From: Candidatus Bathyarchaeota archaeon
Lineage (GTDB): Archaea > Thermoproteota > Bathyarchaeia > Bathyarchaeales > Bathycorpusculaceae
Reading direction: 5' to 3'
DNA: 64,000 nucleotides
NCBI GenBank assembly: GCA_963720565.1
Contig: CAVRFW010000013.1
Coordinates: 32,001 to 96,000 of the forward strand
The notes under the pieces are model-generated. The model worked only from the letters and a program-made list of their open reading frames with translations, had not been told where the DNA came from and did no database searches. This document shows positions 1 to 46,646 of this stretch, one piece after another (position 1 is the stretch's first letter; each line of letters opens with the position of its first letter). The translations under genes were made by a program, and so were the position numbers.

Positions 1-1204
1 GCTTTTCCAGTCTGCATCGGGCGTTACGGGCGACGTGCTCATAGCTGCGGTTGAAAGCAGGGCGATTTCGTACAAGGAAATAGGCTACAGCTTGACAACG
101 GGACAACAGTTATGGGTGCATGATCTCGATCCTGATCACTACACCGCCGCTAGAGCCTTCGGGGAGGGCAAGTACGCCGGCATGAATCCCAACAGCAGAA
201 GCTGGTTTGGCTACGATGCTAGCACGGGTAACCGTTTATGGACCAGTGATCCAGCCGACTATCCTTGGGGAACCTACGGTCTTTCAGGCGTGATCGCGTA
301 TGGCAAGCTATACGCTCTAAGCTACGACGGAAAAGTGCACGCTTTTGACCTTGACACAGGTGATGAGATTTTCAACTACTATAGCGGCGAAGACGTATAC
401 CGTGAAACTCCCTACGGAACTTTTCCGTTCTACTACGGTCCAATAATCGCTGACAACGTGGTCTTTGCCGGTAACGGCGAACACAGTCCGACCCAACCCC
501 TGTTCAGAGGGTATCAACTACACGCTTTCGATGCTCAAACCGGAACTCCAGTGTGGACTCTGCCTGGATGGCATGTCATCCAAGCCATTGCCGATGGTTA
601 CCTCGTATCATACAACGCAGAAGACAACAACATGTACGTTTTCGGCAAAGGGCCGAGTGCAACAACTGTTTCCGCTCCAAATGTCGGAATAACATTTGGC
701 TCGTCTGCAATCATCAGCGGCACTGTCACTGATACATCGGCTGGTGCAAAACAGAATGAGCAGGCTGCTCGTTTTCCAAACGGCGTTCCCGTGGTTTCTG
801 ACGCAAGTGTGAGCGCCTGGATGGAATACGTCTACATGCAACAGGCTTGCCCAGCTGACGTTACAGGCGTTCCAGTGACGATAGACGTGATAGACTCCAA
901 CGGCAATTACCGGAACATAGGCACCGCCACAAGCGACACATACGGCGCATATAGCATCATGTGGACACCCGATATTCCGGGCAAGTACACCGTCATCGCA
1001 TCGTTCGCTGGGTCCGAATCGTACTACGGTTCTTACGCGCAAACTGCTTTCGGTGTAGAAGCACGACCTGAACCTTCGATGGGACCAACCGCACCACCTG
1101 CATCGTTGGCTGATCAGTATCTGCTTCCAGGAATCGGCGGCATCATCGCAGCAATCGCAGTAGTTGGCGTAGTACTAGCAGCGCTTCTGCTTAGAAAGAA
1201 GTGA
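1..1204 (+). CDS. Secreted PQQ-like beta-propeller repeat surface protein, paralog 1 (5' end outside window)
   Basis: Repeated beta-propeller motifs (AFDLDTGDEIF, AFDAQTGTPVW), conserved RFPNGVP..SD.SxSAWMEYVYMQQ block, C-terminal SLADQYLLP + hydrophobic helix + LRKK shared with four other genes in the window. Confidence 0.85.
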   Translation, partial: LFQSASGVTGDVLIAAVESRAISYKEIGYSLTTGQQLWVHDLDPDHYTAARAFGEGKYAGMNPNSRSWFGYDASTGNRLWTSDPADYPWGTYGLSGVIAYGKLYALSYDGKVHAFDLDTGDEIFNYYSGEDVYRETPYGTFPFYYGPIIADNVVFAGNGEHSPTQPLFRGYQLHAFDAQTGTPVWTLPGWHVIQAIADGYLVSYNAEDNNMYVFGKGPSATTVSAPNVGITFGSSAIISGTVTDTSAGAKQNEQAARFPNGVPVVSDASVSAWMEYVYMQQACPADVTGVPVTIDVIDSNGNYRNIGTATSDTYGAYSIMWTPDIPGKYTVIASFAGSESYYGSYAQTAFGVEARPEPSMGPTAPPASLADQYLLPGIGGIIAAIAVVGVVLAALLLRKK

Positions 1205-1241
1205 ACAATCGAAACAAACTTTCACTCTCCCCCTTTTTAGT
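1205..1241 (+). terminator. Putative terminator of paralog 1
   Basis: CCCCCTTTTTAGT tract after the stop; the same tract follows all five paralogs. Confidence 0.5.
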
Positions 1242-1284
1242 GGGACAATAAAACATCCGAACAACAAAGAACAAAGAGGAGAAA

Positions 1285-1400
1285 GATGGGCTGAGTGGGC
1301 TCTGGATTGAACTCTTGATATCGCAGTAGCGGTATAGATTTAGCATTCTCAATTCTCCTTTTTCTCTTATTTTTCGCGTTGCAGAGCCCCAGCAAACCCC
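1285..1400 (+). ncRNA. Candidate structured ncRNA, copy 1 (BHB-like arms, variable interior)
   Basis: Arms GATGGGCTGAGTGGGCTCTGG and GAGCCCCAGCAAACCCC recur at 25765-25874 and are mutually complementary; internal hairpin ATATCGC-AGTA-GCGGTAT; strand inferred from a U.G wobble and BHB geometry. Confidence 0.6.
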
Positions 1401-2890: not shown

Positions 2891-3803
2891 TTGAAGTATT
2901 TCGAGTGGTTAGCAACAACCAAAACCAAGTTGGTTGCTCTGCTAGTTGTGCTGGTTATCGTTCTCGCAAGCCTTATCGGAGCATTGGCGTTCAATCAATC
3001 GGATACACCTATTTCAACTCCAACTCCAGCACCTACTTCAACTCCAACATCCTACTCCAACACCCACTCCAACACCTACTCCAACTCCAACACCCACTCC
3101 AACACCTACTTCAACTCCAACACCCACTCCAACACCTACTCCTACTCCAACACCCACTCCAACGCCTTCACCTGCTCCAACTCCAACACCTCCACCAGAC
3201 GGAAACTGGGACGGGGGTACAGAATTTCTAATTCGAGACGAGATCCACACGTTTTCCGACAATTCACCTGTCGCCGTAGAGAACTGTGGCTGGCATTTCT
3301 GGTACGACACGTCAAGGTATCCTCAGAATTGGTACTCGCCTGTCGACTTCTGGAATGGCAAGATTTACACCCGCTGGGAGATTATAACACAGCCCACCAA
3401 CACAGCCTGCAGCTTCCAGATAGTCTGGTGGAAAGCCCTTCCAGAAGTAGTCAACGGCGTGGAAGTTGTGCAGGAGCTTTGGGATTTGCCCCAGCATCTT
3501 GCGGGGGGCGCAGGGTCAGTTGGCACATTCAGCACGGTGCTGAGCAACTTTCATGTTCAAGGATTAGGTATCGATTTGCACAACACAGGCAATCTCTGGC
3601 GTCAGGGAATCGCGATTATTGATGATGCCACCGGAAGCCCGGTATCTCCCCCTTCATGGGGATATGACGATGAGCCTTGGAACAGCCGCGCACAATGGTT
3701 CCCCATGAAAATGCGTTTGACTATCGTCGCCGTGGCAGCAGGAGCCACCTTCTCCGGATGGGATAGCTGGGTATCGACGCCTCCCACAGACGGCACCAGT
3801 TGA
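2891..3803 (+). CDS. Membrane-anchored/secreted protein with Pro-Thr linker (frameshift near 3048)
   Basis: N-terminal hydrophobic helix in the 2891 frame joins the (PT)n linker and Trp-rich globular domain of the 2946 frame. Confidence 0.7.
3013..3192 (+). repeat. Coding tandem repeat (ACTCCAACACCY units) encoding (Pro-Thr)n
   Basis: Repeated actccaacacccactccaacacct units visible directly. Confidence 0.9.
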
Positions 3804-19330: not shown

Positions 19331-20125
19331 TTAGATATTTTTTTTGCCCGCAGTTTCCCAAAGGGTCTCAAAGTGGTCTTTAAGAATTGTGACCATGCTG
19401 GGGTTGTTCGTCCAAAGAGTCGTGGACTCAGCCAAAGACTTTGACGGAGAATAGTTGAAAGCCACTTCCTTGTTGTCGAAGATTGCGTAGTTTTTTCCAG
19501 AGGTATTTTTCACTTTTCTTATTTCTAGGTTGGGTTTTTTGAGCAGCGCTCGAGCATTTTCTGGAAAGTTGATTTCGGAGTCCAGTTCTTCTAATATTCC
19601 TCGATAATGCACTCCTCTGTTTAATGATTCTTCCCATGTGTTATAACAGTATTCGATGATTTGCATCCACCGTTTTGTGGTGGAGATGAAATCTACGCTG
19701 AATTTAGCATGGTCTTGTCCTGTTCTTAGTACTTGCAGCAGTTTATATTTCCCTTTGTTGACTACGATTCGGGATTCAGTGTCCTGGGGGGTTTCTTGGG
19801 TTTTGTCGAATTTTCGGACTAATCGGTCCAGTTTCTTCCGGTTTTCATTGTATTCCTCTAGTTGCCTCATCAGCAGAACTTGCGTTCCGATCTGGATTGG
19901 TACGGCCTCGTACTTGTACGGTGCTGCTAATTGTTTCTCGACTAAGCCAATATCTTGCAGTTCGTTAAGTATTCTATAGGTCTCCGTTCGAGGAGTCTTA
20001 GTCTGCTGTGAGAGGGCTATGGCGTCTTCTTTTCCATTTTTGAGAAGTGTGAGATAAAGATGTGCTTGGGAATTGGTTAGCCCCGTGTTTGTTAGGAATT
20101 GCACGTCTTCCTCTCGAATCGTCAA
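19331..20125 (-). CDS. TrmB family transcriptional regulator
   Basis: GLTNSQAHLYLTLL..ALS..TPRTETYRILNELQDIGLVEK HTH and C-terminal sensing domain (IFDNKEV..WTNN..HFETLW). Confidence 0.9.
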   Translation of the reverse strand: MTIREEDVQFLTNTGLTNSQAHLYLTLLKNGKEDAIALSQQTKTPRTETYRILNELQDIGLVEKQLAAPYKYEAVPIQIGTQVLLMRQLEEYNENRKKLDRLVRKFDKTQETPQDTESRIVVNKGKYKLLQVLRTGQDHAKFSVDFISTTKRWMQIIEYCYNTWEESLNRGVHYRGILEELDSEINFPENARALLKKPNLEIRKVKNTSGKNYAIFDNKEVAFNYSPSKSLAESTTLWTNNPSMVTILKDHFETLWETAGKKNI

Positions 20126-20170
20126 TTTTGAAGTCTCCGAGAAACCCGCCTATGTTTTATCTGCACTTCG

Positions 20171-20275
20171 AGATTTAGTTCTTTCTGTAATAATATTGTA
20201 TTATTACAAGAAGTTATCTTCTTTCAGTGCCACTTGGACGCAGAAGCATTATTGCTTCTTATAAAGAAAGGAGAA
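20171..20275 (+). promoter_or_regulatory. Duplicated upstream region A (palindrome, hairpin, SD-like AAGGAGAA)
   Basis: 95/105 ungapped identity with 22981-23085; perfect TGTAATAATA-TTG-TATTATTACA at 20186-20208; AGAAGCA-TTAT-TGCTTCT at 20242-20259. Confidence 0.8.
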
Positions 20276-20282
20276 AAGCAGA

Positions 20283-22903
20283 ATGCATAAAAGTAATACT
20301 GCAATAGCGATTGTCCTATTTCTGATGTTTACGCTAACACTCACAGCATTACCTCTGGCTAAAGCACACGATCCTCCGTGGCAGATTCCAACGTATGCAT
20401 ACATACAAGCTGTTCCAAACCCCGTTGGTGTCGGACAGGCAGCCCACGTTTACATGTGGATTGACAAGATTCCTAACGGTGCCTCCCCAACCAATAACAT
20501 CCGACTGCACGACTACAAGCTCACGATCACGACGCCAGATGGCACAACAACAACAAAGACCTGGGCTACCGTTGAAGATACAACGTCAAACCAAGGTTAC
20601 TCTTTTACTCCCGCCCAAACAGGTACATTACACTCTCAAGTTCGATTTTCCAGGATTGACATTCACCTACACCGATTTAGTCTTTAGTTTCTTTGGTCCC
20701 CCTGGACCAAGTGCATACATCAACGATACTTATCTCCCTAGCACCGCAACAACTACGCTAACCGTTCAGGAAGAACCACTATACACGTACCCAACCACTC
20801 CACTTCCAACAGAATACTGGACACGACCAATATACGGAGAAAACTCAAATTGGTGGGCTATCTCTTCAAACTGGCTAGGCACTGGTGCACCCGGCTATGA
20901 TAACGGCATCGGAGGCGCTGGCTTCCCAGGCGACGCAATAGGCCCCCAAACCAGTCACGTCATGTGGACCAAACCCTTCCAAAGCGGCGGAGTCGTAGGA
21001 GGAAACAACTATGAAATCCAAGGAGACACATTCTTCGAAGGCTCAGCATACGCCAACAGATTCAACAACCCAATAATCGTTGATGGAATGCTCTACTACA
21101 AGGAACCCCTCTCTTTCGGCAGCGGGTCAGGCGGACCAACCAAATGCGTTGACCTGCGGACCGGACAAGTCATCTGGTCCCGCACCGACGTACCATCGCT
21201 ATCATTCGCCTACATGTATGACGTACAAAGCTTCAACCAGCACGGAGTCTATCCGCCAATTCTGTTTGCGAGCACCGGTGGATTCTTTTTCTCGGGCCCT
21301 GTGACTTTGAGAGCCTATGACGCATACACAGGCGACCATCTATTCAACTTGACAGGCGTCCCTGACGGCCAGACGGACATGGGTCCCAAAGGGGAGTACT
21401 TGGTCATCGGACTCACAAACTTGGGCAACTTCATGGCGCCAAACTACTATTTGACACAGTGGAACATGTCAAAACTATGGGAAAGCCAATACTTCGGGGC
21501 AAGCACAACACCCTCCATCATTCCACCAATTACCGACGCAACCAACCCAAGCCTATACGACTACAACATGTCAATGCCAACGCTCAACACTATGGCTTCG
21601 CCCACCATGCTTGCAGCCTTCACCGGGGACGTCGCGCTCTTCAGGAGCGGATCCTACCCTTGCAGGTGCAAGCACCTCGTTCAGTGCGCCAAGCAGCTCT
21701 CCCTACACGTACTTCGCAGTGAACCTCAACTCATCCAAGGGCGCAATCGGGTCCATTCAGTGGTCAAACACGGTCACCCCGCCAACAGGCAACATCACTG
21801 TCTCGTTCGCAGCAGCCGACCCGGACACCGATGTGTTCGTTGAATACCAAACAGAAACCATGCAGTACGTTGGATATAGCATGACGACAGGCCAGAAAAT
21901 ATGGGGACCAATCGGCAACCAAGACGCACTAGCCTTCTACTGGATGGGCTACAGCGGTCAAGGTGCCCAAGTTGCCTACGGAAACCTCTACAGCTGCAGC
22001 AACATGGCAGGAATAGTCTACTGCTTTGACCTGAAAACCGGAACCCAATTGTGGTCATACGGCAACGGCGGAGAAGGAAACAGCACACACAGCGGCTTCG
22101 AAGTACCGGGACCATATCCAACTATCATATATGCCATCGGCAACGACGTAGTATACACAGTGACCAGCGAACACACGGTTGAAACACCGATATACAAAGG
22201 CGCACTCACAAGAGCCATCAACGCCCACACCGGAGAAGAAATCTGGACGCTTTCAAACGACAACAACGCAGGTTCCTCAGCAGCTGCCATCGCAGACGGC
22301 TACGCAACCATCGCCAACGGCTATGACAACCAAATCTACGTCATCGGAAGAGGCTCTAGCCTAACCACTGCAACCGCGGGACCGAAAGTTCAGACATTCG
22401 GAAACAACGTGATCATAGAAGGCACAATCATGGACAGCTCCTCCGGCACGAAACAGGAAGAGCAGATTGCCCGTTTTCCAAACGGAGTCCCCTGTGCATC
22501 TGATGCAAGCATGAGTGACTGGATGAGCTACATCTACCAACAACAACCGTTTCCAACAGACTTCACAGGCGTCGAAGTATCAATTGACGTTTTTGACTCT
22601 AACGGCAACTACCGAAACATAGGCACAGCAACAACCGATGCAAAAGGCATGTACAGTTTCACATGGACCCCAGATATTCCAGGCGACTTCAAGGTAATCG
22701 TGACTTTCGCAGGCACAAACGGCTATTGGCCATCAAGCTCGGAAACAGTCTTCAACGTAATGCCCGCCCCGGAAGCCACCGTCGCCCCCACAGCATCCCC
22801 TGCATCATTAGCTGACCAGTACATGCTACCAGGAATTGGCGTCATAGTCGCTGCAATCGCAGTAGTCGGCGCTGTAATAGTGCTGATGCTCAGAAAGAAG
22901 TAA
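20283..22903 (+). CDS. Secreted PQQ-like beta-propeller surface protein, paralog 2 (frameshifts near 20628 and 21660)
   Basis: Signal peptide, PNPVGVGQ, PLPTEYWTRPI, HVMWTKP, RFPNGVP, SLADQYMLP-TM-LRKK distributed over three ORFs. Confidence 0.85.
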
Positions 22904-22952: not shown

Positions 22953-22980
22953 CAAACACAGAGGAGAAATAGGCATTTAG

Positions 22981-23085
22981 AGATTTGGTTTTTTCTGTAT
23001 TAATATTGTGTTATTACAAGAAGTTATCTTCTTCCAGTCCTACTTGGTCGCAGAAGCATTATTGCTTCTTAAAATGAAAGGAGAA
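22981..23085 (+). promoter_or_regulatory. Duplicated upstream region B
   Basis: 95/105 identical to 20171-20275; the palindrome carries two substitutions. Confidence 0.8.
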
Positions 23086-23094
23086 TAAGAAAAA

Positions 23095-25678
23095 ATGAAA
23101 TTTGCTAAAACTACATCTTTGTTTGCTTTGATTCTGATGATAACGCTAACAATCCCCATGATAATGCAAGCACCTGTAAAAGCGGATTCGACGGTGAATG
23201 TTAAAACTTATCTGTTTGTCAATGCGGCACCTAGCCCCGTGGGCGTCGGTCAAACTATATTCGTTAGCCTCTTCTTCAGCAAACCTGTACCCATTATCGG
23301 CGGATTCGGCGGCGCAACCCTGCTTGAAAATCTAAAGGTCAATATTGTCAAGCCAGACGGAACTAATGAGACACTCGGACCATATACATCTGACACGACA
23401 GGCGGTGTAGGCGGACTCACTTACACGCCAGCTACAACAGGAACCTACACCTTCCAAGGTATATTCCCTGGGCAAAATATTGGGATGGACTCTTTCACCA
23501 ACACTACCTATCATATGAATGCAGATATGAGTCCTGCCGTCACAGTTGTCGTACAGGAAGAAGCGGTAGGGGGCTATTTCTAGTCCTCCGCTTCCAACCG
23601 ATTACTGGACACGTCCATTATACGCAACAAACTACGATTGGGCGCAAAAGATTGGCGGAAACTGGTATGGCTTAGGAAGACCCGCGTTCAACCATTGCGG
23701 TGGATACGATGCCTCAAACAACAACTACAATCCATATAGCACTGCACCGAAAACTGCTCACGTTTTGTGGACCAAACCAACTACAACCGGAGGCCAACCT
23801 GGCGGCGAAACAATCGCTGATCAAAACAGCGCGTACTGTGCATCTTCTCCACTCTACCACAGCTTTGAGCCGGTGATTCTGAACGGAATAGTCTACTATA
23901 ATTATTGGGCAGCTCAAACAGACAATGCAGGCATCCTTGCAGTCGACATTCGCACAGGAGAAACACTCTGGCACAAAAACACCACTGACATATTGATTTA
24001 CGGTCAAGTTATGACGTTCCACAACAACGAGGAATTCGGCTCTCAAGCATTTCTATGGACATCACATGAGGCTGGCATAGGACCCATGGGCATGTTTGGC
24101 CCAACAATCATCTACGAATACAAAATAATCGATCCAGTAACAGGAAATGACATGGCCACCGTAACTGACATTCCCAGCGCAATCGGTGGTATGTTTTCAA
24201 CATCAATAGGCGCATCAATAGATAAAGAGCCAACCACTGGATTCTATTGCTCAGGAGGAATACTAATCCACTGGGTGGACAGCGGCAAACTCTACATGTG
24301 GAACTCAACTCTCATCCTAGCCCCTCCCTTTGCCTTCTTCGCGACACCATACAAGCCAACAGGCAGCTACAACTTCACAGCCGGCATACAATGGTCGGTA
24401 ACTCTCCCTGCAGCAAATCCAGCATATAGTATAGGACAAGCTCCTATAACCGACGAAGCAATAGTATTGACTTCATATCCCTCAATCCTTCCGACTTTCG
24501 CCACACAATACGGCGGTCCTACCGCTACAGACATAGCATACAATCCTAAAACTGGAGCACTCTTGTGGGGACCAGTAACCCAGACTTTGACGGAGCAGAA
24601 TCAAGTAGGCGTAGTAGCTGCAGGCGAGGGCGTCTATGTAAGACACGACAAAGATACAAATGAAGCGTTCGGATATTCACTGACAAATGGACAGAAACTC
24701 TGGGGACCAACCCAGCTTGTAGGCAACGCTCTAAGCCACCTATATGAATCTGCCGCAATCGCTTATGGCAGAGTTTACATTTGGGACTACGGCGGCTACT
24801 GCAACGCTATTGATCTTGAAACTGGACACCTTGACTGGACCTACACCCGCGGATCCTCTGGCTATGATAACCCATTCGGCTCATATCCTCTCTGGGTCTA
24901 CTCCTCCCAAAGCATTGCTGACGGAATGCTATTCCTCTCCGAAGGAAAGCTGTACGATCCACCTCTGTTCCCTAATGCACGAAAACTAGCCATAAACTGC
25001 ACTGACGGCTCAGTTGTCTGGTCGATAAACGGAGCATTCCAAAGAGACGTAGCACCTATCGCAGATGGCGAAATGCTTGCATGGAACGGATATGACGGCC
25101 AAATATACGCTTTCGGCACTGGAGCAACTAAGACTACTGTCACCGCACCTAACGTGGGCGTTACGACTTCCACGCCAATAACGATAACGGGTACAGTAAC
25201 GGATATCTCATCAGGCGCATCGCAAAATGCAGTTGCATCGAACTTCCCCAATGGCTTACCATGCGTTTCTGACGCAAGTATGACTCCATTTATGGAAGCC
25301 GTTTACGAGCAGCAAACAATGCCAACCAGCCTGACCGGAGTAACAGTAACAGTATCTGTCACCGACATAAACGGCAACAGTTACGACATAGGCACAACAA
25401 CAACTGACCCAACCACAGGTTTCTACAGCATAAACTGGACACCCACCATACCCGGCAACTTCCTTGTCACTGCAACTTTCGCAAACACTCAATCATACTA
25501 CGGATCCTCCGCTAAGACAGCCTTCTACGCAAGCGAAGCCCCTGCTGCCACTCCCGAACCGACTCAGGCACCTGCATCACTAGCTGACCAGTACTTGCTT
25601 CCTGCAACGGGCGGAATAATCGCGGCAATCGCAATAGTCGGCATAGCGATAATTGCGCTGATGCTCAGAAAAAAGTAG
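23095..25678 (+). CDS. Secreted PQQ-like beta-propeller surface protein, paralog 3 (frameshift near 23577)
   Basis: Removing one T restores GYSSPPLPTDYWTRP and joins the 23095 and 23765 ORFs; same family motifs and C-terminal anchor. Confidence 0.88.
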
Positions 25679-25764: not shown

Positions 25765-25874
25765 GATGGGGCTGAGTGGGCTCTGGAACAAGTCATGACT
25801 GTCTAGTCAGCAGTCAAGAGTTGAATTTCTTTCCTTTCTCCTTACAGTATAATTCCGGAGCCCCAGCAAACCCC
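25765..25874 (+). ncRNA. Candidate structured ncRNA, copy 2 (BHB-like arms, variable interior)
   Basis: GGG-GCTG-AGT-GGGCTCTGGAA ... TTCCGGAGCCC-CAGC-AAA-CCC; 11-bp inner stem with one U.G pair; internal hairpin TGACTG-TCTAGTCAG-CAGTCA. Confidence 0.65.
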
Positions 25875-26159
25875 TATTTATCTTTACTCAGGAGGCGCTT
25901 GGGGTCCAAAATCTTCAAAGAAGCAAGTCAGTCTTGGATCTTTCATGGTTAATTAAGAATTCTGCATGGAAATACCCAGATAATTATTTCAACCTCAGTC
26001 TGAGTGCGTGTAACGCATAAGTTGGTTATTCTCAAATCTTACTGGCTGCTTCGTTTAGTTTTTTCCGTGTTTTTGCCTGTGCTAAATAGTATTAAATACA
26101 AGTTGGTCTGAAAGGAGCATTGGCCTTGAAAAGGGCTTATAATGAAAGGAGAATAGAAA

Positions 26160-28691
26160 TTGACTAGAAATAGAATTGCTGCAGCGATTGTTATGTTTCT
26201 GATGTTAAGCATGATCATTGCGACAGTTGCTTTTCCGGCTGTTCGAGCACAGATTCTTCCCTCGTTCCTGCTAATCAACGTTGCACCTAACCCCATCGGC
26301 GTCGGACAAACCGCGCAGGTGAACGCTTTTCTAAGTAAACCGCCAATGACAGCGGGTCTGGGTGGTTCCGGCGACATGTTCAAAGGCATCACGGTGGAAG
26401 TCACGAGGCCTGACGGAACAAAGCAAACTCTGGGACCATTCACATCTGACGCAACAGGAGGAACCTACACCGCTTTCACGCCTAGTACAGTTGGCAACTA
26501 CACATTCAAAGCGTCTTACCCAGGGCAACGTATAGAGGCATGGTCGTACTCGCCGTTTGGTCCCCCGACTTTTATCAATGTTACATATACGGCCAGTACT
26601 AGCCCAACAGTAACCCTTGTCGTACAGGAAGAAGCTATACCGACATATTCCAGTCCTCCCCTTCCGACGGAATACTGGTCTCGCCCAATATACGCAACAA
26701 ACTACGGGTGGGCTCAACTTGGCGGAAGCTGGTTTGGACTTGCACCGGCAGTATTCGCCACCACTGGAGGGTATGATGCAACTGGAAACTTCAATCCATA
26801 CACCACCGCACCAAACACTGCTCACGTAATGTGGACAAAACCCACGCATTTCGGAGGACAAGCAGGATCACCTATAAGCGCCGACCAAATGAGCCAATAC
26901 ATGTCCACAACGATAGCCACGAACTTCTTCGAACCCGTAATCCTTAACGGAATACTCTACTACACTCATTTTGCGGGTCCAAACGCCGCCAAAGCAAGCT
27001 GGGAAGCTGTAGACATACGCACAGGAGAAGTCCTGTGGAGCAGATCAGCGGGCGAAACAGGCAATGAAGTCATTCGCATGGGCCAAATCCTGCGTTGGCA
27101 TTCGATTCAAGAATATGGTTCTTGGGCTTTCCTATATAGCTGCGAATCGGGAGGATTCTTCCAAGCAATATCCTTCTTCTCAATATATGATGCATTCACA
27201 GGAGAATTCGTAGCAAACATAACTGGAGTTCAGAATCCATCATTTCTGATGGATCTTGAATCAGAACAGCAGGGAACATTACTAGGCTACTACGTCGCTT
27301 CAGATGGCAACTTGACTCTTTGGAACTCGACCCGACTAATGATGAGCAATAGTTGGGATCAGATAACTATCCGTCCAGCCGGCACATACAATTGGTCGAC
27401 AGGAATAGAGTGGTCAGTGCCGATGCCAACAACGGTTGGAAACGCACCCATAGGCGGATCGATGGGCATTGCCGCAATAACTCCCGAAGTGATATTGCTC
27501 CGTTATGCTCCTTCACCCGGCATGTTTGTCGAACTCAGTTACGGCTATCAGATCACCGCAGGTATCGATGCAAAAACTGGAAGGTTGCTCTGGGGACCAA
27601 CAAACCAAACAATACCTAACCTTCAAGACGTGGCTATAATAGCAGCAGACGAAGGTGTCTACGTATTGCACAACAAAGACACGAATGAAGCATACGGTTA
27701 CTCACTAGAAACAGGGAACCTAATGTGGGGACCAGTTAAACTTCCAGGAAACGCTTGGGCCGTTATGTCACGGTCCGCGGAAATCGCCTACGGCAAAATA
27801 TTCATCTGGGACTTCGGCGGCTACGTGAATGCTTTGAACGCAGATACAGGAAGTATCGAGTGGACTTTAGTCCCGAGAAGTGCTGGCTACAACACTGGCT
27901 ATGGCATCTATCCCCTTTGGTACACTGGAAGCATATGCGACGGAAAGCTATTCCTCTCAGAGAGCCACATGTACAATCCGCCGCTGTTCCCAGACGCTCA
28001 AAGACTCGTTATCGACTGCGAAACAGGAGAGCTTGTCTGGAGCGTACTAAGCTTCGACGGGCGAGTGCCTGCCGCTCATGCAGACGGCTACATGGTAGAG
28101 TGGAACAGCTACGATAACCAAATATACTCATTCGGCAAGGGTCAAACCGCCACCACAATCGCAGCTTCGCCAAAGGTTTCAGTGCAAGGCAACAAAGTAT
28201 TGGTTGAAGGAACTGTTACTGACGAATCACCTGGAACGAAAGATTCCGATAGGACAGCTCGTTTTCCAAACGGCGTCCCAGCAGTCTCTGACACAAGCAT
28301 GAGTGCATGGATGGAATACGTTTACATGCAACAGCCCAAGCCTACGGACACAACTGGCGTTGAAGTAGTCATAACCGTTCTTGATCCTAACGGCAACTGT
28401 TACGAGGTAGGCAGAACAGCAAGCGACATGGACGGCTTTTTCAAGCTGACGTTTGAACCAGAAGTCCCAGGCGAATACACCGTATATGCCTCGTTTGAAG
28501 GCTCAGAGTCATACTGGCCCTCATCTGCGCTCACCGCTATAAGTGTGGCAGAAGCAACTGAAGCTACTCCTGAACCAACACAAGCGCCTGCAACTATGGC
28601 TGAACAGTACTTGCTGCCCGGAGTAGTCGGCCTGTTCGCTGCAATCGCAATCGTCGGCGTCGTATTAGCACTGCTACTCAGAAAACGCTAA
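26160..28691 (+). CDS. Secreted PQQ-like beta-propeller surface protein, paralog 4 (intact, 843 aa)
   Basis: TTG start after AAGGAGAA, signal peptide, propeller repeats, MAEQYLLP-TM-LRKR. Confidence 0.92.
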   Translation: MTRNRIAAAIVMFLMLSMIIATVAFPAVRAQILPSFLLINVAPNPIGVGQTAQVNAFLSKPPMTAGLGGSGDMFKGITVEVTRPDGTKQTLGPFTSDATGGTYTAFTPSTVGNYTFKASYPGQRIEAWSYSPFGPPTFINVTYTASTSPTVTLVVQEEAIPTYSSPPLPTEYWSRPIYATNYGWAQLGGSWFGLAPAVFATTGGYDATGNFNPYTTAPNTAHVMWTKPTHFGGQAGSPISADQMSQYMSTTIATNFFEPVILNGILYYTHFAGPNAAKASWEAVDIRTGEVLWSRSAGETGNEVIRMGQILRWHSIQEYGSWAFLYSCESGGFFQAISFFSIYDAFTGEFVANITGVQNPSFLMDLESEQQGTLLGYYVASDGNLTLWNSTRLMMSNSWDQITIRPAGTYNWSTGIEWSVPMPTTVGNAPIGGSMGIAAITPEVILLRYAPSPGMFVELSYGYQITAGIDAKTGRLLWGPTNQTIPNLQDVAIIAADEGVYVLHNKDTNEAYGYSLETGNLMWGPVKLPGNAWAVMSRSAEIAYGKIFIWDFGGYVNALNADTGSIEWTLVPRSAGYNTGYGIYPLWYTGSICDGKLFLSESHMYNPPLFPDAQRLVIDCETGELVWSVLSFDGRVPAAHADGYMVEWNSYDNQIYSFGKGQTATTIAASPKVSVQGNKVLVEGTVTDESPGTKDSDRTARFPNGVPAVSDTSMSAWMEYVYMQQPKPTDTTGVEVVITVLDPNGNCYEVGRTASDMDGFFKLTFEPEVPGEYTVYASFEGSESYWPSSALTAISVAEATEATPEPTQAPATMAEQYLLPGVVGLFAAIAIVGVVLALLLRKR

Positions 28692-28735
28692 ACATCTTGA
28701 AAGCACAAGCTTTCAACTTCCCCTTTTTTAGTCAA
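28692..28735 (+). terminator. Hairpin plus T-tract terminator
   Basis: TTGAAAGC-ACAA-GCTTTCAA then CTTCCCTTTTTTAGTCAA. Confidence 0.7.
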
Positions 28736-28876
28736 ACAATAAGCAATCGAAATAACAAAAATTGGTACATGGATAAAGCCATCTAACACTTGAAACAATT
28801 GTATTGGGGCGCGAGCGCCTTTCTTATAAAGAACCTTCCCCATAAAGAACAAATCACAGAAACACTGCGTGCCAAG

Positions 28877-29723: not shown

Positions 29724-29876
29724 ATGTACTCGGCAGACCGAATCCTCTGAAGAGACTTCTGCTAAGTTGAACTCTTAACCCCACCAGCTGCTTCTCTATG
29801 CACGAGCAATAATATTCTTGGCCCAGATTGAAAGGCTAAGCAGCCTGCTCTGTCCAGCTAAAATGAGGCACGCAAA

Positions 29877-30029
29877 CTATTCGTCGAACAGGGTGATTAT
29901 GTTGCCGAAAACTATCAGAGCCAAACCAATCGGAAGGTTCAGGTCAATGTGCTGCACGAGTGCATGAACCATAAGAACAGAACCAGCAACCAGAAAGAAA
30001 CCCGCAAGCAGCTTCCTCTTGTTTTTCAT
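29877..30029 (-). CDS. Small two-helix membrane protein (50 aa)
   Basis: MKNKRKLLAGFFLVAGSVLMVHALVQHIDLNLPIGLALIVFGNIITLFDE. Confidence 0.5.
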   Translation of the reverse strand: MKNKRKLLAGFFLVAGSVLMVHALVQHIDLNLPIGLALIVFGNIITLFDE

Positions 30030-30210
30030 TTGCAACCAGCGCCTTCCAACTCTCTTTTCCTCATAAAAACCCTTTCAATAACCTGTACAGCACAGAAACA
30101 CCAAAAGGGAGAGCCCACGGAAACTAGTTCTTGCAGCGGCAGGAACACAGCAGCTCAACATCGCTTTTTCCCAATCCTTGTGCGCGTTTAGCCAGTCGGG
30201 TAGTAGCGTA

Positions 30211-31338
30211 TTACCGTTCTTTCAACTGGTGGAAAGACATGAACGAGAAAACAGCAAAGAACACGCCCGTCGCAGCGAAAACTGGACTATAACCCACAGC
30301 TTGAGCCACAAGCCCGGCCGCTAGAACAGACCCAAATTCTGCCAGACGCATAGGCACGTGAAGCAAACCGATGTCAACAGAAACGTTTCTCCGATTTAGT
30401 GCCACTTTGGCGACGAGGTGCTCAAAGAACGCGACGCCAAACCCACGCACGAAAGCGAGAGCAAAGAGCAACGCTGGGAAAAACAATCCCGAATCAGCAA
30501 GGAGGACAGATGCTGATATGGCAACCGCGCCTTGAATCACGGCGCGTCTGAGGCTAAGGGATATTCTCAACGTGATGAACGTTGTCACAGAGGCTATCAA
30601 GTTGTAGAGCATGAACAGCCCACCTATAACGATATAGCTGTAGCCCATCTGCTGATCCATGAAGACGGGAAGAAGAAACGTGAGCAGAGGATAAGTGGCG
30701 ACACTGTTAAACATCAAGGCAATGGAAGCCCACCAGAAAGCTGAGCCTTTCCCACGCGGGTCAAGAAGCCGCAAAATGTTGGAAGTCTCCACCTTCGACG
30801 TCTTTTTTCCCGTCTTCCAGAGTAACCCAGCGGGGATTCCAATAGACGCAGAAGCAAAAACCAACAGGACTATGGTCCAAGAGAAACCAGCGTACGCGAT
30901 CCCAATGCCCGCTGCTGCACTTCCAACAGCGGTTGCTAGCCATATTACTGCGTTGTTCCTCGTGGCTTCACGACCCTCCCGATTAGGCGACAGATGAAAG
31001 ATGGCTGTCCGGTTCACCGCCCAGTACGAGGCATCCCTTAAGCCCTCGACTAATTTGCCAGCGAAAAAAACTGGAAGCGATGAGGCAACATAATATATCA
31101 GGGTGGAAAGGACAGTGGCTGGCCAGTTAAACAGGAGAAATACGTGCGACCAACCTATTCGGTCTGCGACGGCGGCGAACAAGAGGCGGGCAACCAAGAA
31201 CACAATGGGCAACACTGACAATACCACGCCTATTTCCGCCAAATTCACGTTCTGAGCAACGAGCAACAACGGAATTAGAAGTGTTAATGAGCCGGAAACG
31301 AAATTATTCAGAAAAGTTATGGCGTTGACTCTTCTCAT
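30211..31338 (-). CDS. MFS transporter
   Basis: About 12 hydrophobic segments; AVADRIGW motif-A-like loop. Confidence 0.85.
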   Translation of the reverse strand: MRRVNAITFLNNFVSGSLTLLIPLLLVAQNVNLAEIGVVLSVLPIVFLVARLLFAAVADRIGWSHVFLLFNWPATVLSTLIYYVASSLPVFFAGKLVEGLRDASYWAVNRTAIFHLSPNREGREATRNNAVIWLATAVGSAAAGIGIAYAGFSWTIVLLVFASASIGIPAGLLWKTGKKTSKVETSNILRLLDPRGKGSAFWWASIALMFNSVATYPLLTFLLPVFMDQQMGYSYIVIGGLFMLYNLIASVTTFITLRISLSLRRAVIQGAVAISASVLLADSGLFFPALLFALAFVRGFGVAFFEHLVAKVALNRRNVSVDIGLLHVPMRLAEFGSVLAAGLVAQAVGYSPVFAATGVFFAVFSFMSFHQLKER

Positions 31339-31507: not shown

Positions 31508-32428
31508 CTATTGTGTTTTCATTTGTTTCTTACGTTTCTTAGCCAGCAGTACGGCAACGGTGAAGACAGCTACTATCGCGATGATAGCTGCTGCGGCGTA
31601 GAAGGCTTCAGGAGGCAATCCACCTGCGCCTGTCGGCTCAAGCGAGGAAGTAATTGTTGGAGTGGGTGTTGGAGTTGTGGATGTACTGTAGGTGATTTCA
31701 AGTTTCAATACGGAATATTCGCCGTATTCTTCACCATATTCTCTGCTGTCGAAAATTCCTCCTCTATACCCGCCCGCTTCATTGTCTAGCTTGATTAAGA
31801 AGCCCAAGTTCGGATACGCATCGCTCGCCCAGCCTTTCACAATGTTTGTGACTGTTAAGTTCAGGCTAGTCCAAGTCATCGGATAAGGAGGAATAACGAC
31901 TGTTGCACTGTCCTCCAGCGCACAGTCACCGCCCGGCGTTCCCCAGTTACTCGTAGCTGTTGTGAGCCCATCCATGTAATTGTATTCGTTCCATGTGACT
32001 CCATCCTGAGCTGGCGCGCTCGGCTCTCCTGTTCCCTCAACCCAATCGTGGGTGATCCTACATGCCCTTAGAGTGTCGCCTGAAGGATAGCCTGATGACC
32101 ATGGAGTAGGTCCCCAGAGCTTAAGCGTGGCCGCAGTGATTTGTTCTCCGGAGAGTGTCGGAGGCAGGTCAAACTGAACCAAGACGCGATGAACGACGTT
32201 GCTGCCATTGTCAAACCCAAAATCTAGACGATAATAAGCGCCATAATTCACGTCCATCGAACCACCGCTACTGATTGAAGCATCTTTTGAAGGTGTGTCA
32301 AGAGTCAATTCGGAAATTGCCTGAGCACTACCAAAAGAAAACGTACTGAAAGTTAAGACTGAGACAAATAGGAGAAGAACCAGAGCCAACCGCAATATCT
32401 TATTCATTATTTCACAACCACGACACAA
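31508..32428 (-). CDS. Secreted DNRLRE/disaggregatase-like domain protein with C-terminal TM anchor
   Basis: Signal peptide, DASI...NYG...RVLVQFDL...I.AATLKL, W.EG.G, PNLGFLIK, FDSRE; TM plus KKRKK. Confidence 0.75.
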   Translation of the reverse strand: MCRGCEIMNKILRLALVLLLFVSVLTFSTFSFGSAQAISELTLDTPSKDASISSGGSMDVNYGAYYRLDFGFDNGSNVVHRVLVQFDLPPTLSGEQITAATLKLWGPTPWSSGYPSGDTLRACRITHDWVEGTGEPSAPAQDGVTWNEYNYMDGLTTATSNWGTPGGDCALEDSATVVIPPYPMTWTSLNLTVTNIVKGWASDAYPNLGFLIKLDNEAGGYRGGIFDSREYGEEYGEYSVLKLEITYSTSTTPTPTPTITSSLEPTGAGGLPPEAFYAAAAIIAIVAVFTVAVLLAKKRKKQMKTQ

Positions 32429-43642: not shown

Positions 43643-43973
43643 ATGTGAACCTCCAAAAACAAAAATAATTCACTTGCGATTTATCGTTTGCGGTTCCACC
43701 ATTGCAAGCCACGCGCGCTCTGTAATTTCTTGCCAAGATTAATGAAAGAATAACAAAAGCAAAGCAGAATTTTCTGTGATGATTATGAAAGCTCCATATG
43801 GCAAGAATTACCCTCACACCCTCTGACAATCATTATCGAGATAATCCCAAAATTCAGAAAAGGAAAAGTGCGTTCTTTCAATAATTTTATAAGCAATTCC
43901 AATGCACAGTAGCAAATGCGTTCTTGCGTGCCTTACTCGCGAGAACAGCAAAAGAAAGGAGAAAAGAAATTAC

Positions 43974-46646
43974 TTGAAAATACACAAAAACGCAGCAGCG
44001 ATAATTTTGCTTTCTACGTTACTAATGCTTTCGATGGAAGTTTCAGTACTAGGACAAGTCACTTTTCCACCAGGAACCAAAATACCAACATACGCCTTCA
44101 TCAACGTTGCACCTAACCCAATAGGCGTCGGTCAATCAGTAACCGTTAACTTCTTCCTTGCAACACCCATGGAAAACAACGAAAGACCCACAAACATGAA
44201 TGTTAAGATAACCAAGCCTGACGGAACAACCCAAACACTGGGACCATTCACAGGAGACACAACCGGAGGATCATTCACCACATTCGTTCCCAGCCAAACT
44301 GGCACCTACTCGTTCCAGTTCCTCTATGGCGGACAAACACTAGCGCCAGGCGGAGGCTACGGAGGCCTCGTTAACCAGCCTAAGCGAAAGTGCTGTAGTA
44401 ATGCTCACAGTGCAAGAAGAACCGATATACGAAAGCGCGTATCCAGCCTCTCCGCTTCCAAGCAACTATTGGCAAACACCGGTTTCATCAATGAACGTCG
44501 AGAACTGGTACAAGATCATGGGACCATGGCTTGGAACTGGCTCAGTCACCTTTGCGCAAACCGGAGGCTACAACGTCAGCTCCATGTGCAATCCATACAC
44601 TGAATCAGTATTGTCCGGTCACGTTCTCTGGACAAAAGTCTGGGGTACCGGAGGCGTAGTCGGCGGCGATGCGGGCGGAGGTCAAGAATCGGGTCACTAC
44701 TGGTCAACCAGACAGTACTGGCCTCAATACGCACCGGTCATAATAAACGGCATAATGTATTCTACCTACTACCCGGAAACCACGGGCTACTCAAATGGCA
44801 TTCTCGCAACAGACCTCTACACAGGCGAAACCCTCTGGACAATAAACACCACTAACGCGTTGCGATGCGGCATGACCATGGACGTTAAAACAGCCAACGC
44901 TTACGGCGCTGTCGGTCCATACATCTGGACCACCGGCACTCTCCCAGCAGCAGACACAGGCGGAAGGCAAATCGGAGGTGGACCCTCGTCGTATATGAAC
45001 ACGACAGGAACACAATGGAACATGTATTCCGGCTTAACTGGACAATACGTCCTCAGCGTAGTCAACGGCACAACCATGACGCTTAGGCCAGACGAAAACG
45101 GAAACTTGATAGGCTACTACATCAACAGCACCGCCGGCCCACAAAATGTCTATTCCTTTGGAGAGGGAGGCGGATTCTTCGGACCCTCACTAGTCCCACG
45201 ATGGTGAATATTACTGGTCCTCGCATGTGCGCTTTCAACATGACACAATTGATAGGCAGTTCTTGGGGATGGGGTCCCTCGGTTAACGGCGTCTATGACT
45301 TTGCGCTAGGTGTAATGTGGTCAAAGCCAGTACCTACCACCATTTCAGGTGTGCCTATAACTCCGGGTCTTGCTTTGAACTCGATAACCGGCGATGCACT
45401 AGTTCTAAGCGGCGGATATGTTCACGGACAAGGAGTCGGAGGAGAAACGGCAGGCTGGCTCGTCATAGCAAGCATGGATCAAAACACAGGCAACGTGTTG
45501 ATGGTAAAGAACCTAACATACCCATCAACAATCTCGTTGTTACCTTTCACAAGAACAACCAGCTCGTTCGGTGACGGCCTGATCGCTATCGCAAACGACG
45601 TCAACAAAAACGTAGTTGCCTACGATGTGCATACAGGCAACAAGGTATGGGAAACAGCTCTTCAAACCGACAGCACTGACGGAAACCAAACGATTACGAC
45701 CTATTCAGCCTAAAGTCATGGGTAGCAAACGGCGTGATGTACTGGTTTGGCTTAGGAGGAGACATCTGGGCTCTTGAAACCAGACAACGGAAACGTAAGA
45801 TGGTACACAAACACGACAAGACTCATCGGCGACCCAGGAATTGAGACTCCCTACGGAATTTGGCCACTATGGGTTTTCAACAGCATGGGCCTCACAAACG
45901 ATGTGGCTTACTTCACTATCGGCCACGAATACAACCCACCACTCTTCCACGGCGCACAGATGCTAGCCGTAAACGCAACTAACGGAGAATTGATATGGAG
46001 CGAACTGGGCACCTACATCAGATCCACAGCCATTGCCTACGGAGTCATGTTGTCTCTGAACGCCTACGATAACCAGATATACGCATTCGCCAAGGGACCA
46101 AGCGCAACCACCGTCACGGCTCCCAGCGTAGGAGTCGCAACCGACACCCCAATAACGATAACAGGCACGGTAATGGACGTTTCAGCTGGCACTCAACAAA
46201 GCGAAGTCGCAAAGAACTTCCCCAACGGCCTCCCATGCGTCTCTGACGAAAGCATGAGCAGCTGGATGGAATACGTCTACCAAAACCAGCCATGTCCAGC
46301 AGACTTTACAGGCGTCAAAGTTACCCTAAACGTCCTTGACTCAAACGGCAACTTCAGACCAATCGGCACCGCCACAACCGATGCTTCGGGCACATTCGGC
46401 TACACTTGGACCCCTGACATACCAGGCAACTACCGAGTCATCGCCAACTTTGAAGGAACAAACGGCTACTATCCATCCTCTGCCACAACATACTTCTACG
46501 CCAGCGAAGCTCAACAACCCACTCCTGAACCAACTCAGGCTCCCACATCTTTAGCTGACCAGTATCTGCTGCCTGCAACAGGCGGAATCATCGCTGCAAT
46601 CGCAATAGTCGGCGTCGCGCTAGCACTATTGCTCAGAAAACGGTAA
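43974..46646 (+). CDS. Secreted PQQ-like beta-propeller surface protein, paralog 5 (about four frameshifts)
   Basis: TTG after AAGGAGAA; PNPIGVGQ, HVLWTK, NFPNGLP, SLADQYLLP-TM-LRKR over ORFs 43902, 44401, 45201 and 45774. Confidence 0.85.

Follow-up and report, generated by a model that had tools for sequence, protein, structure and literature searches.

A bulge–helix–bulge-bounded RNA cassette antisense to the 5′ ends of a surface-protein family in Bathyarchaeia, a predicted EndA-excised translational repressor

Our analysis revealed that the segment 1320–1361 of a Bathyarchaeia contig belongs to the interior of a conserved RNA cassette of approximately 110 nt, which is bounded by a bulge–helix–bulge (BHB) and is antisense to the translation starts of a multi-copy family of surface-protein genes. 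The RNA structure, its strand, the antisense match, the genomic link to the protein family and the tracking of that family's 5′ ends by lineage were observed in the genomes compared. We consider it probable that the cassette is an EndA-excised, probably circular, family-wide translational repressor, a reading whose RNA-level steps we infer.

Results

The surface-protein paralogs and the setting of the cassette

The whole 64,000-nt stretch of DNA analysed here, called the window, covers C13:32001–96000 of a 2.09-Mb Bathyarchaeia assembly. The genome contains 16 starts of PQQ-type β-propeller paralogs, each protein having approximately 850 amino acids with a signal peptide, a PQQ_2 β-propeller, Ig-like domains and a C-terminal hydrophobic tail; five of the 16 sit within or beside the window. 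Paralog 1, the host gene of cassette copy 1 (1288–1398), starts at C13:30679, 1.3 kb before the window. Its 841-aa product has a PQQ-type β-propeller, Ig-like domains and a C-terminal membrane anchor, the last assigned by reading the sequence; the Big_3_5 match was weak. The features are as follows.

2..1204, + strand: 3′ part of paralog 1, with PQQ_2 over the cut-off
1229..1240, + strand: C-run/U-tract resembling a terminator, present behind family genes whether or not they have a cassette
1273..1286, + strand: purine tract able to pair with the anti-SD, a competitor of the BHB fold in copy 1
1288..1304, + strand: 5′ arm of copy 1 (GG 1288–89, GCTG 1290–93, AGT 1294–96, inner stem 1297–1304)
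1296..1395, + strand: predicted excised intron or circular RNA of 100 nt, from the BHB geometry
1318..1335, + strand: small internal hairpin, overlapping the block antisense to Ala-Thr-Ala-Ile-type signal-peptide codons
1342..1361, + strand: single-stranded tract, antisense to the start codon (CAT 1344–46) and the family SD (1353–61)
1382..1398, + strand: 3′ arm of copy 1 (inner stem 1382–89, CAGC 1390–93, AAA 1394–96, CC 1397–98)
20253..20327, + strand: 5′ end of paralog 2 (ATG 20283), ranked second among the predicted partners of copy 1
23065..23139, + strand: 5′ end of paralog 3 (ATG 23095), which hosts copy 2 and is a weaker candidate target
25769..25872, + strand: cassette copy 2, behind paralog 3
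26130..26204, + strand: 5′ end of paralog 4 (TTG 26160), candidate target at −40.0 kcal/mol with copy 1
43944..44018, + strand: 5′ end of paralog 5 (TTG 43974), a weaker candidate target

The protein clusters resembling the host protein are archaeal, Bathyarchaeota being the most frequent; no PDB sequence matched it and no NCBIfam family exceeded the cut-off, and a single-sequence structure prediction was unusable (pLDDT 39.8). Six of the 16 paralog reading frames are broken in the assembly, among them paralogs 2, 3 and 5 (20283–22903, 23095–25678 and 43974–46646; first frames of 134, 162 and 209 aa), and so is the RtcB gene. Assembly indel errors are therefore the likely, unproven cause, with true slippage or decay as the alternative.

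Several features of the neighbourhood were recorded. The promoter and leader regions of paralogs 2 and 3 (20163–20275 and 22973–23085) are 89% identical over 113 nt while the proteins are distant, a pattern that we read from the sequence as recent conversion of the upstream regions. TrmB-family regulator genes are divergent and lie just upstream of paralog 2 (19331–20125), and a gene of this family, by likeness, is also divergent upstream of paralog 1 (C13 ~29750–30560). Two genes with long Pro-Thr repeats (2946–3803 and 31508–32428) carry near-identical repeat DNA in opposite orientation.

Copies of the cassette

A covariance model found eight strong, two degenerate and one doubtful copy in this genome, two of them inside the window. 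For comparison across genomes, 95 profile matches from this genome and the regions fetched from 11 others yielded 82 that parsed as BHB and 80 distinct copies. Fifty-nine of the 80 follow a family gene within 450 nt, at a median of 80 nt past the stop codon and behind the U-tract. This tract, a putative terminator, occurs at 68 of 82 family gene ends. AGGAG or GGAGA was present in 19 of 47 spacers with a cassette and in 3 of 21 without. Only 4 of the 17 family 3′ ends in this genome bear a cassette; in the other genomes the regions were fetched around cassettes, which biases their counts of cassette-bearing ends. Several copies without an adjacent family gene show a TATA-like box.

The cassette corresponds to no Rfam family, none reaching the gathering score within the window, and no tRNA was called at any copy. 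A tRNA or rRNA intron or processing stem was rejected as its identity, since the flanks form neither. A box C/D or H/ACA guide was likewise rejected: inspection against the box consensus sequences found only a CTGA at the 5′ arm, with no box C or ACA end, and no Rfam family of either class matched even at E ≤ 5.

Partial and grouped cassettes were also seen. The 3′ end of paralog 4 (28700–28760) shares the U-tract and the start of the spacer with the copy 1 locus and has no cassette, as if it had been lost or never inserted. Orphan 3′ half-cassettes occur at C5:347156–347182, C6:9282–9316 and C3:36802–36831, those of C5 and C6 having approximately 100 nt of upstream sequence in common, and a 5′ half occurs at C5:347868–347950. 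At C13:29539 (L014), 1.1 kb upstream of paralog 1, a cassette follows a remnant family-type C-terminal tail and U-tract with the gene body absent. Among relatives, L100, L289, L299, L280 and L063 hold cassette pairs in tandem, 140–330 nt apart, hinting at small arrays able to release two circles.

The cassette ends form a conserved bulge–helix–bulge

The ends of the cassette pair as an outer helix, a 4-bp GCTG/CAGC central helix and an inner stem; each strand carries a 3-nt bulge on the 3′ side of the central helix. This is the canonical hBHBh′ form, with a 4-bp helix, two 3-nt bulges and flanking helices on both sides, and the described EndA substrate is a BHB of a 4-bp helix with two 3-nt bulges (PMC6379350). 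In copy 1, the central helix is 1290–93/1390–93, the bulges are 1294–96 and 1394–96, and the outer helix has 2 bp (GG 1288–89/CC 1397–98). With the cut position within the bulge taken from PMC4090602, EndA is predicted to cut copy 1 between 1295 and 1296 and between 1395 and 1396. The predicted excised RNA is 100 nt in copy 1 and 72–107 nt across copies.

Comparison of copies supported this structure. A MAFFT alignment of 14 copies had 96.4% of the stem cells paired, with four pairs changed on both sides, and in an alignment of 39 copies, fitted to the model, 97.4% were paired and 12 of 16 pairs were changed on both sides, compared with 24–56% pairing in slid controls. The central helix lacks covariation support because it is invariant: GCTG/CAGC was present in 78 of 80 copies, in a set whose parser required the central helix, and the AAA bulge in 76. 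The outer helix has at least 2 bp in 73 of 80. When the bulge length was left free in 30 distant copies, it was 3 nt in 22, 4 nt in four and 2 nt in one, and three were unparsed. Loose BHB shapes are common by chance (975 in this genome), and therefore only conservation was counted as support.

The strand was also evident. On the + strand, the stems contain 54 G-U and 12 A-C among 720 positions, an excess indicating that the RNA is the pyrimidine-rich, antisense strand, and the bulges lie 3′ of the central helix on the + strand only.

The genome encodes two EndA-type genes (PF01974) and RtcB (PF01139), the latter split over two frames in the assembly. Long or non-canonical introns were seen in the tRNA genes at C3:167680–167834, C9:493490–493643 and C6:29603–29749, consistent with an active (αβ)2 EndA. 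In the energy model, the central helix had a probability above 0.5 in 57 of 80 copies; for copy 1 it was 0.2–0.25, and 0 when the purine tract 1273–86 was included. Copy 1 folded no better than shuffled sequence (z 0.04), compared with z −3.2 for copy 2; copy 1 is possibly a weak member, or a switchable one. The predicted circle junction was found 0 times in a metagenome contig collection, which shows no sign of holding small circular RNAs.

The same antisense function could be served by a linear small RNA, derived from the 3′ end or free-standing, in which the BHB end binds a protein, stabilises the RNA or is cut without ligation. The near-fixation of the central helix and A-rich bulges goes beyond the described needs of EndA and hints at a binding protein, and both the 4-nt bulge in four of the 30 distant copies and the weak BHB of copy 1 suit this explanation. 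Against it, the 4-bp/3-nt/3-nt geometry, flanked by an outer helix, agrees with the definition of an EndA substrate given in PMC6379350, and archaea circularise BHB-bounded RNAs, BHB-dependent circles being known for rRNAs, including those of Bathyarchaeia (PMC12918454). We regard the linear form as a serious candidate that is nevertheless unlikely, and favor excision by EndA.

Antisense match of the interior to paralog 5′ ends

The first-pass annotation had proposed that the reverse complement of 1320–1361 mirrors the SD, start codon and first codons of paralog 2. We reproduced this alignment with 20267–20311 exactly, as 34 identities, eight mismatches and three single-base gaps in 45 columns, and the match was significant against dinucleotide shuffles (local score 29 versus 13.4 ± 2.3; 0 of 5000 as high). 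A sliding search of both strands of the whole genome gave 20 sites with a score of at least 26, comprising six cassette copies (self included), five paralog 5′ ends and nine unrelated sites. The best site outside the cassettes was the start of the paralog C9:9975 (score 34), and paralog 2 (29) tied with C9:7052 and one unrelated site. These results show that the antisense match is real and points to the paralog family, and not to paralog 2 alone. A short-word BLASTN search with the 42-mer agreed in part: it listed two paralog starts on C9, while paralog 2 was absent at E ≤ 50.

The broader proposal, that the interior mirrors or pairs with the 5′ ends of family members, was borne out, since all ten genome copies scored above shuffles against the 16 paralog starts (z 2.1–11.3; eight copies with 0 of 300 shuffles as high) and the sense orientation did not. 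Two details of the annotation had to be abandoned. The peptide likeness (TAIAI/TATAI) fails in frame, the minus-strand SD/ATG frame reading MLNLYRY..., and copies 1 and 2 are not independent occurrences of the pattern, their interiors being approximately 42% identical and members of one alignable family. A minus-strand leader peptide was rejected as well: an SD-ATG arrangement occurs in 58 of 80 copies, the peptides are unrelated, and the paralog motif is kept in 1 of 58.

The motif is general among the cassettes. In interiors selected by the cassette ends alone, independently of the model, the anti-SD hexamer was present in 92 of 127 from the genomes and 74 of 119 from metagenomes, compared with 4.0 and 2.8 in shuffles, and the sense form in 0 and 2, respectively. 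An anti-ATG lies 3–16 nt 5′ of the anti-SD in 75 genome and 72 metagenome interiors. With gene starts called mechanically, 11 of the 16 paralogs and six of the 1982 other predicted genes carried the 9-mer SD context. When the copies were folded as circles, the anti-SD was unpaired at 0.83, compared with 0.43 for all bases (71 of 80 copies carry the motif); the cassette thus has a single-stranded region complementary to its candidate targets' ribosome-binding site, as in ribosome-binding-site masking. Pairing with paralogs of the same genome is strongest at −14 to −8 and +1 to +3 and shows a lesser plateau at approximately +25 to +33, and a second block matches the signal-peptide codons of 55% of the paralogs versus 13% of other genes.

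Candidate targets and self-pairing

The best predicted partner of copy 1 is C3:164116 (−46.9 kcal/mol), followed by paralog 2 (−41.3), and then C2:6919, paralog 4 and C9:9975 at approximately −40. The suggestion that better partners lie outside the window was thus correct for C3:164116 and C9:9975, while the 5′ end of paralog 1 itself, also named as a possible best target, was the weakest of the 16 partners (−18.3 kcal/mol); paralog 1 lacks the family SD. Both a unique best target and paralog 1 in that role were rejected. Perfect matches to a paralog start extend to at most 10 nt in copy 1 and to 8–22 nt in other copies. At these lengths, and with the cassette at a separate locus, a cis-encoded antisense RNA was rejected. 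The copy at C12:135–247, whose host is lost at the contig end, has a perfect 20-nt antisense match to the C9:7052 leader, the longest in the genome.

Ranked by duplex energy among approximately 2000 mechanically called starts, paralogs occupy 6 of the 20 leading positions for copy 1 and 1, 4, 3 and 1 of them for four sister copies; the figure for copy 2 is 1. The paralog family is therefore enriched among the predicted partners, and not exclusive. Another explanation is that the RNA is a decoy that titrates a factor of the ribosome, an RNA-binding factor or a sense-like RNA of the opposite strand, or hits any gene with an AGGAG-type SD. Background AGGAG-SD genes do pair better than average (−27.0 versus −23.6 kcal/mol), some outranking most paralogs, and the anti-SD resembles the 16S 3′ tail. 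However, the G-U pairs and BHB polarity favor the antisense strand, the minus-strand mini-ORFs are unconserved, and the second block follows signal-peptide codons, perfectly over 17 nt in a second taxonomic family. A decoy is accordingly very improbable in our estimation.

A further possibility is that the 3′ cassette folds back onto the 5′ end of its own mRNA, which stays silent until EndA removes the inhibitor. The frequent position behind a family gene fits this explanation, and the host ranks first among the genome's paralogs in 5 of 47 host-linked copies. Nevertheless, there is no overall self-preference: in these 47 copies, which come from nine genomes and from loci sampled around cassettes, host pairing was below the mean of the other paralogs in 29 (p 0.15), and the four host-linked copies of this genome rank their hosts 13th, 15th, 9th and 13th of 15. 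The host of copy 1 is its worst partner, some copies have no adjacent family gene, several of these with the TATA-like box, and within a genome similarity is greater among the cassettes than among the 5′ ends of their hosts. We consider folding back in cis improbable and favor pairing in trans. At p 0.15, self-avoidance as a rule was rejected as not significant.

Occurrence in relatives and lineage tracking

The covariance model matched cassettes in 39 of 151 genomes of the taxonomic family and 14 of 70 genera, with as many as 19 in one genome; across the class, 12 of 151 genomes had matches, three of five from a second family among them. Among the matches listed, 77 of 80 cassette-bearing records were Bathyarchaeia, one was an uncultured archaeon and two were short contigs in bacterial bins. 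The protein family (E ≤ 1e-30) is also encoded by 36 of the 39 cassette-bearing genomes; in 12 further genomes, the protein family was present and the cassette undetected, and a search for divergent cassettes at 15 loci from four of these 12 found none. No copy with the cassette end pattern occurred in viral contigs.

The interiors follow the 5′ ends of their own lineage. Judged by energy, all 9 of 9 genomes showed a preference for paralogs of the same genome; judged by alignment score, 12 of 14 did. In this taxonomic family, 81 of 96 cassettes carry AGGAGA, as do 72 of 84 starts, and in the second family 0 of 25 cassettes and 0 of 21 starts carry it; cross scores between the two are reciprocal (22.1/16.8 and 25.4/18.8). 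In the second family, perfect matches reach 22 nt, including 17 nt inside signal-peptide codons. The sequence comparison thus shows that cassettes follow the starts of their own lineage, including a reciprocal change of SD motif, a tracking to which kinship and base composition contribute and which covers two lineages only. The annotation had left a choice between an interior derived from a family member and one selected to pair with it; the two are not fully separable, and lineage tracking points to ongoing selection on the interior.

Cassettes also resemble each other within genomes. The similarity is 0.59 within genomes and 0.39 between them, compared with 0.45 and 0.40 for paralog starts, and the nearest neighbour of a cassette is in the same genome for 55 of 80. 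This excess over the paralog starts fits spread and homogenisation of cassettes that follow the family consensus. Copy 2 and a copy on C5, which lie behind different genes, are 96% identical. Such near-identical copies would also be expected of a DNA-level element, either an inverted gene-start copy serving inversion or gene conversion or a neutral remnant multiplied through duplication, and the cassette–target alignments show no excess of G-U over A-C (255 versus 304; none after composition fitting). The stems, however, show compensatory and G-U changes, and the 10-nt longest perfect match of copy 1 is short. The recurrent neighbours of family loci, taken from 110 loci in 23 genomes, are TrmB (30 loci, 15 genomes) and Lrp/AsnC (22 loci, 11 genomes) regulators, with no recombinase among the five clusters scanned. 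We give a DNA-level element very little weight. A dedicated partner protein or enzyme was not evident among these neighbour clusters either.

Discussion

We propose the following mechanism for the cassette as an RNA, in which transcription, cutting, circularisation, pairing in vivo and repression are steps that we infer. The cassette would be transcribed from the same strand as its host gene when transcription passes the U-tract, and free-standing copies from their own promoter. The transcript ends would form the bulge–helix–bulge, EndA would cut both bulges, and RtcB would close the intron of approximately 93 nt into a stable circle, as with tRNA introns. In the circle, a U/C-rich loop would lie exposed and pair in trans with many family mRNAs at their SD, spacer and start codon, and a second block would pair with the signal-peptide codons. 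Such pairing would block initiation, resulting in family-wide negative feedback on large membrane-anchored surface proteins.

Feedback from a 3′ region has a likeness in bacteria. CpxQ and MicL are 3′UTR-derived feedback sRNAs, which are linear, RNase E/Hfq-dependent and single-copy; as proposed for the cassette, an RNA from the 3′ region of a gene limits the synthesis of envelope proteins.

In archaea, the nearest structural relatives are mRNA introns. HVO_1309 of Haloferax volcanii carries a 46-nt BHB intron in its 5′ UTR that is cut by EndA and circularised, and the same source names the cbf5 pre-mRNA intron as the only other such case (PMC7714728). Like the cassette, these are BHB-bounded segments of an mRNA-linked transcript; they are single-copy, lie at the 5′ end or in the coding region and have no antisense role in their description. 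In contrast, the cassette is multi-copy, lies 3′ of a gene or is free-standing, and its intron is itself the antisense part. The tRNA-Trp intron with its box C/D guide and the circularly permuted SRP RNA of Thermoproteus (PMC7714728, PMC12558985, PMC4731332) illustrate how the tRNA splicing machinery releases functional non-coding RNAs in circular form, as we propose here. The cassette differs in having no tRNA body, C/D box pair, SRP or other Rfam match, and in its predicted partners, which are mRNA starts.

With respect to function, sRNA162 of Methanosarcina mazei masks a ribosome-binding site in trans through an unstructured single-stranded region; it is one linear RNA with two targets, and a BHB, a circle and a paralog family are absent from the available description (PMC3510493). 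Sulfolobus solfataricus has circular antisense-box RNAs against transposon ORFs (PMC3326292). These resemble the cassette as circular archaeal RNAs with predicted antisense targets, but as described they are short and directed at transposons, and the terms BHB and bulge are absent from the text of that paper. On our model, the cassette would function like an RBS-masking sRNA and be built like an EndA intron.

In the available sources, the substrates described for EndA comprise tRNA introns, processing stems of rRNA, a single permuted SRP RNA and two individual mRNA introns. We found no description of the cassette in a literature search that covered few subscription journals. Its parts are each known; their combination was not found in that search. 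Should the circle fail, the cassette would still be a new form of antisense small RNA.

The prediction places both cut sites and the targets at single-base resolution. If our interpretation is true, a family with hundreds of copies would make EndA and RtcB producers of regulatory circular RNAs, and the cassette would be a prokaryotic circular RNA with a clearly predicted target. A more speculative extension, which we think doubtful, is a cross-repression network in which each transcribed surface gene sheds an EndA-made circle that silences its paralogs more than itself. If so, the cell would display one or few variants, through RNA-based mutually exclusive expression of surface proteins by way of the tRNA splicing machinery. 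In either case, a true family-wide repressor would reveal control of the largest surface-protein family in an abundant, uncultured lineage of sediment and peat.
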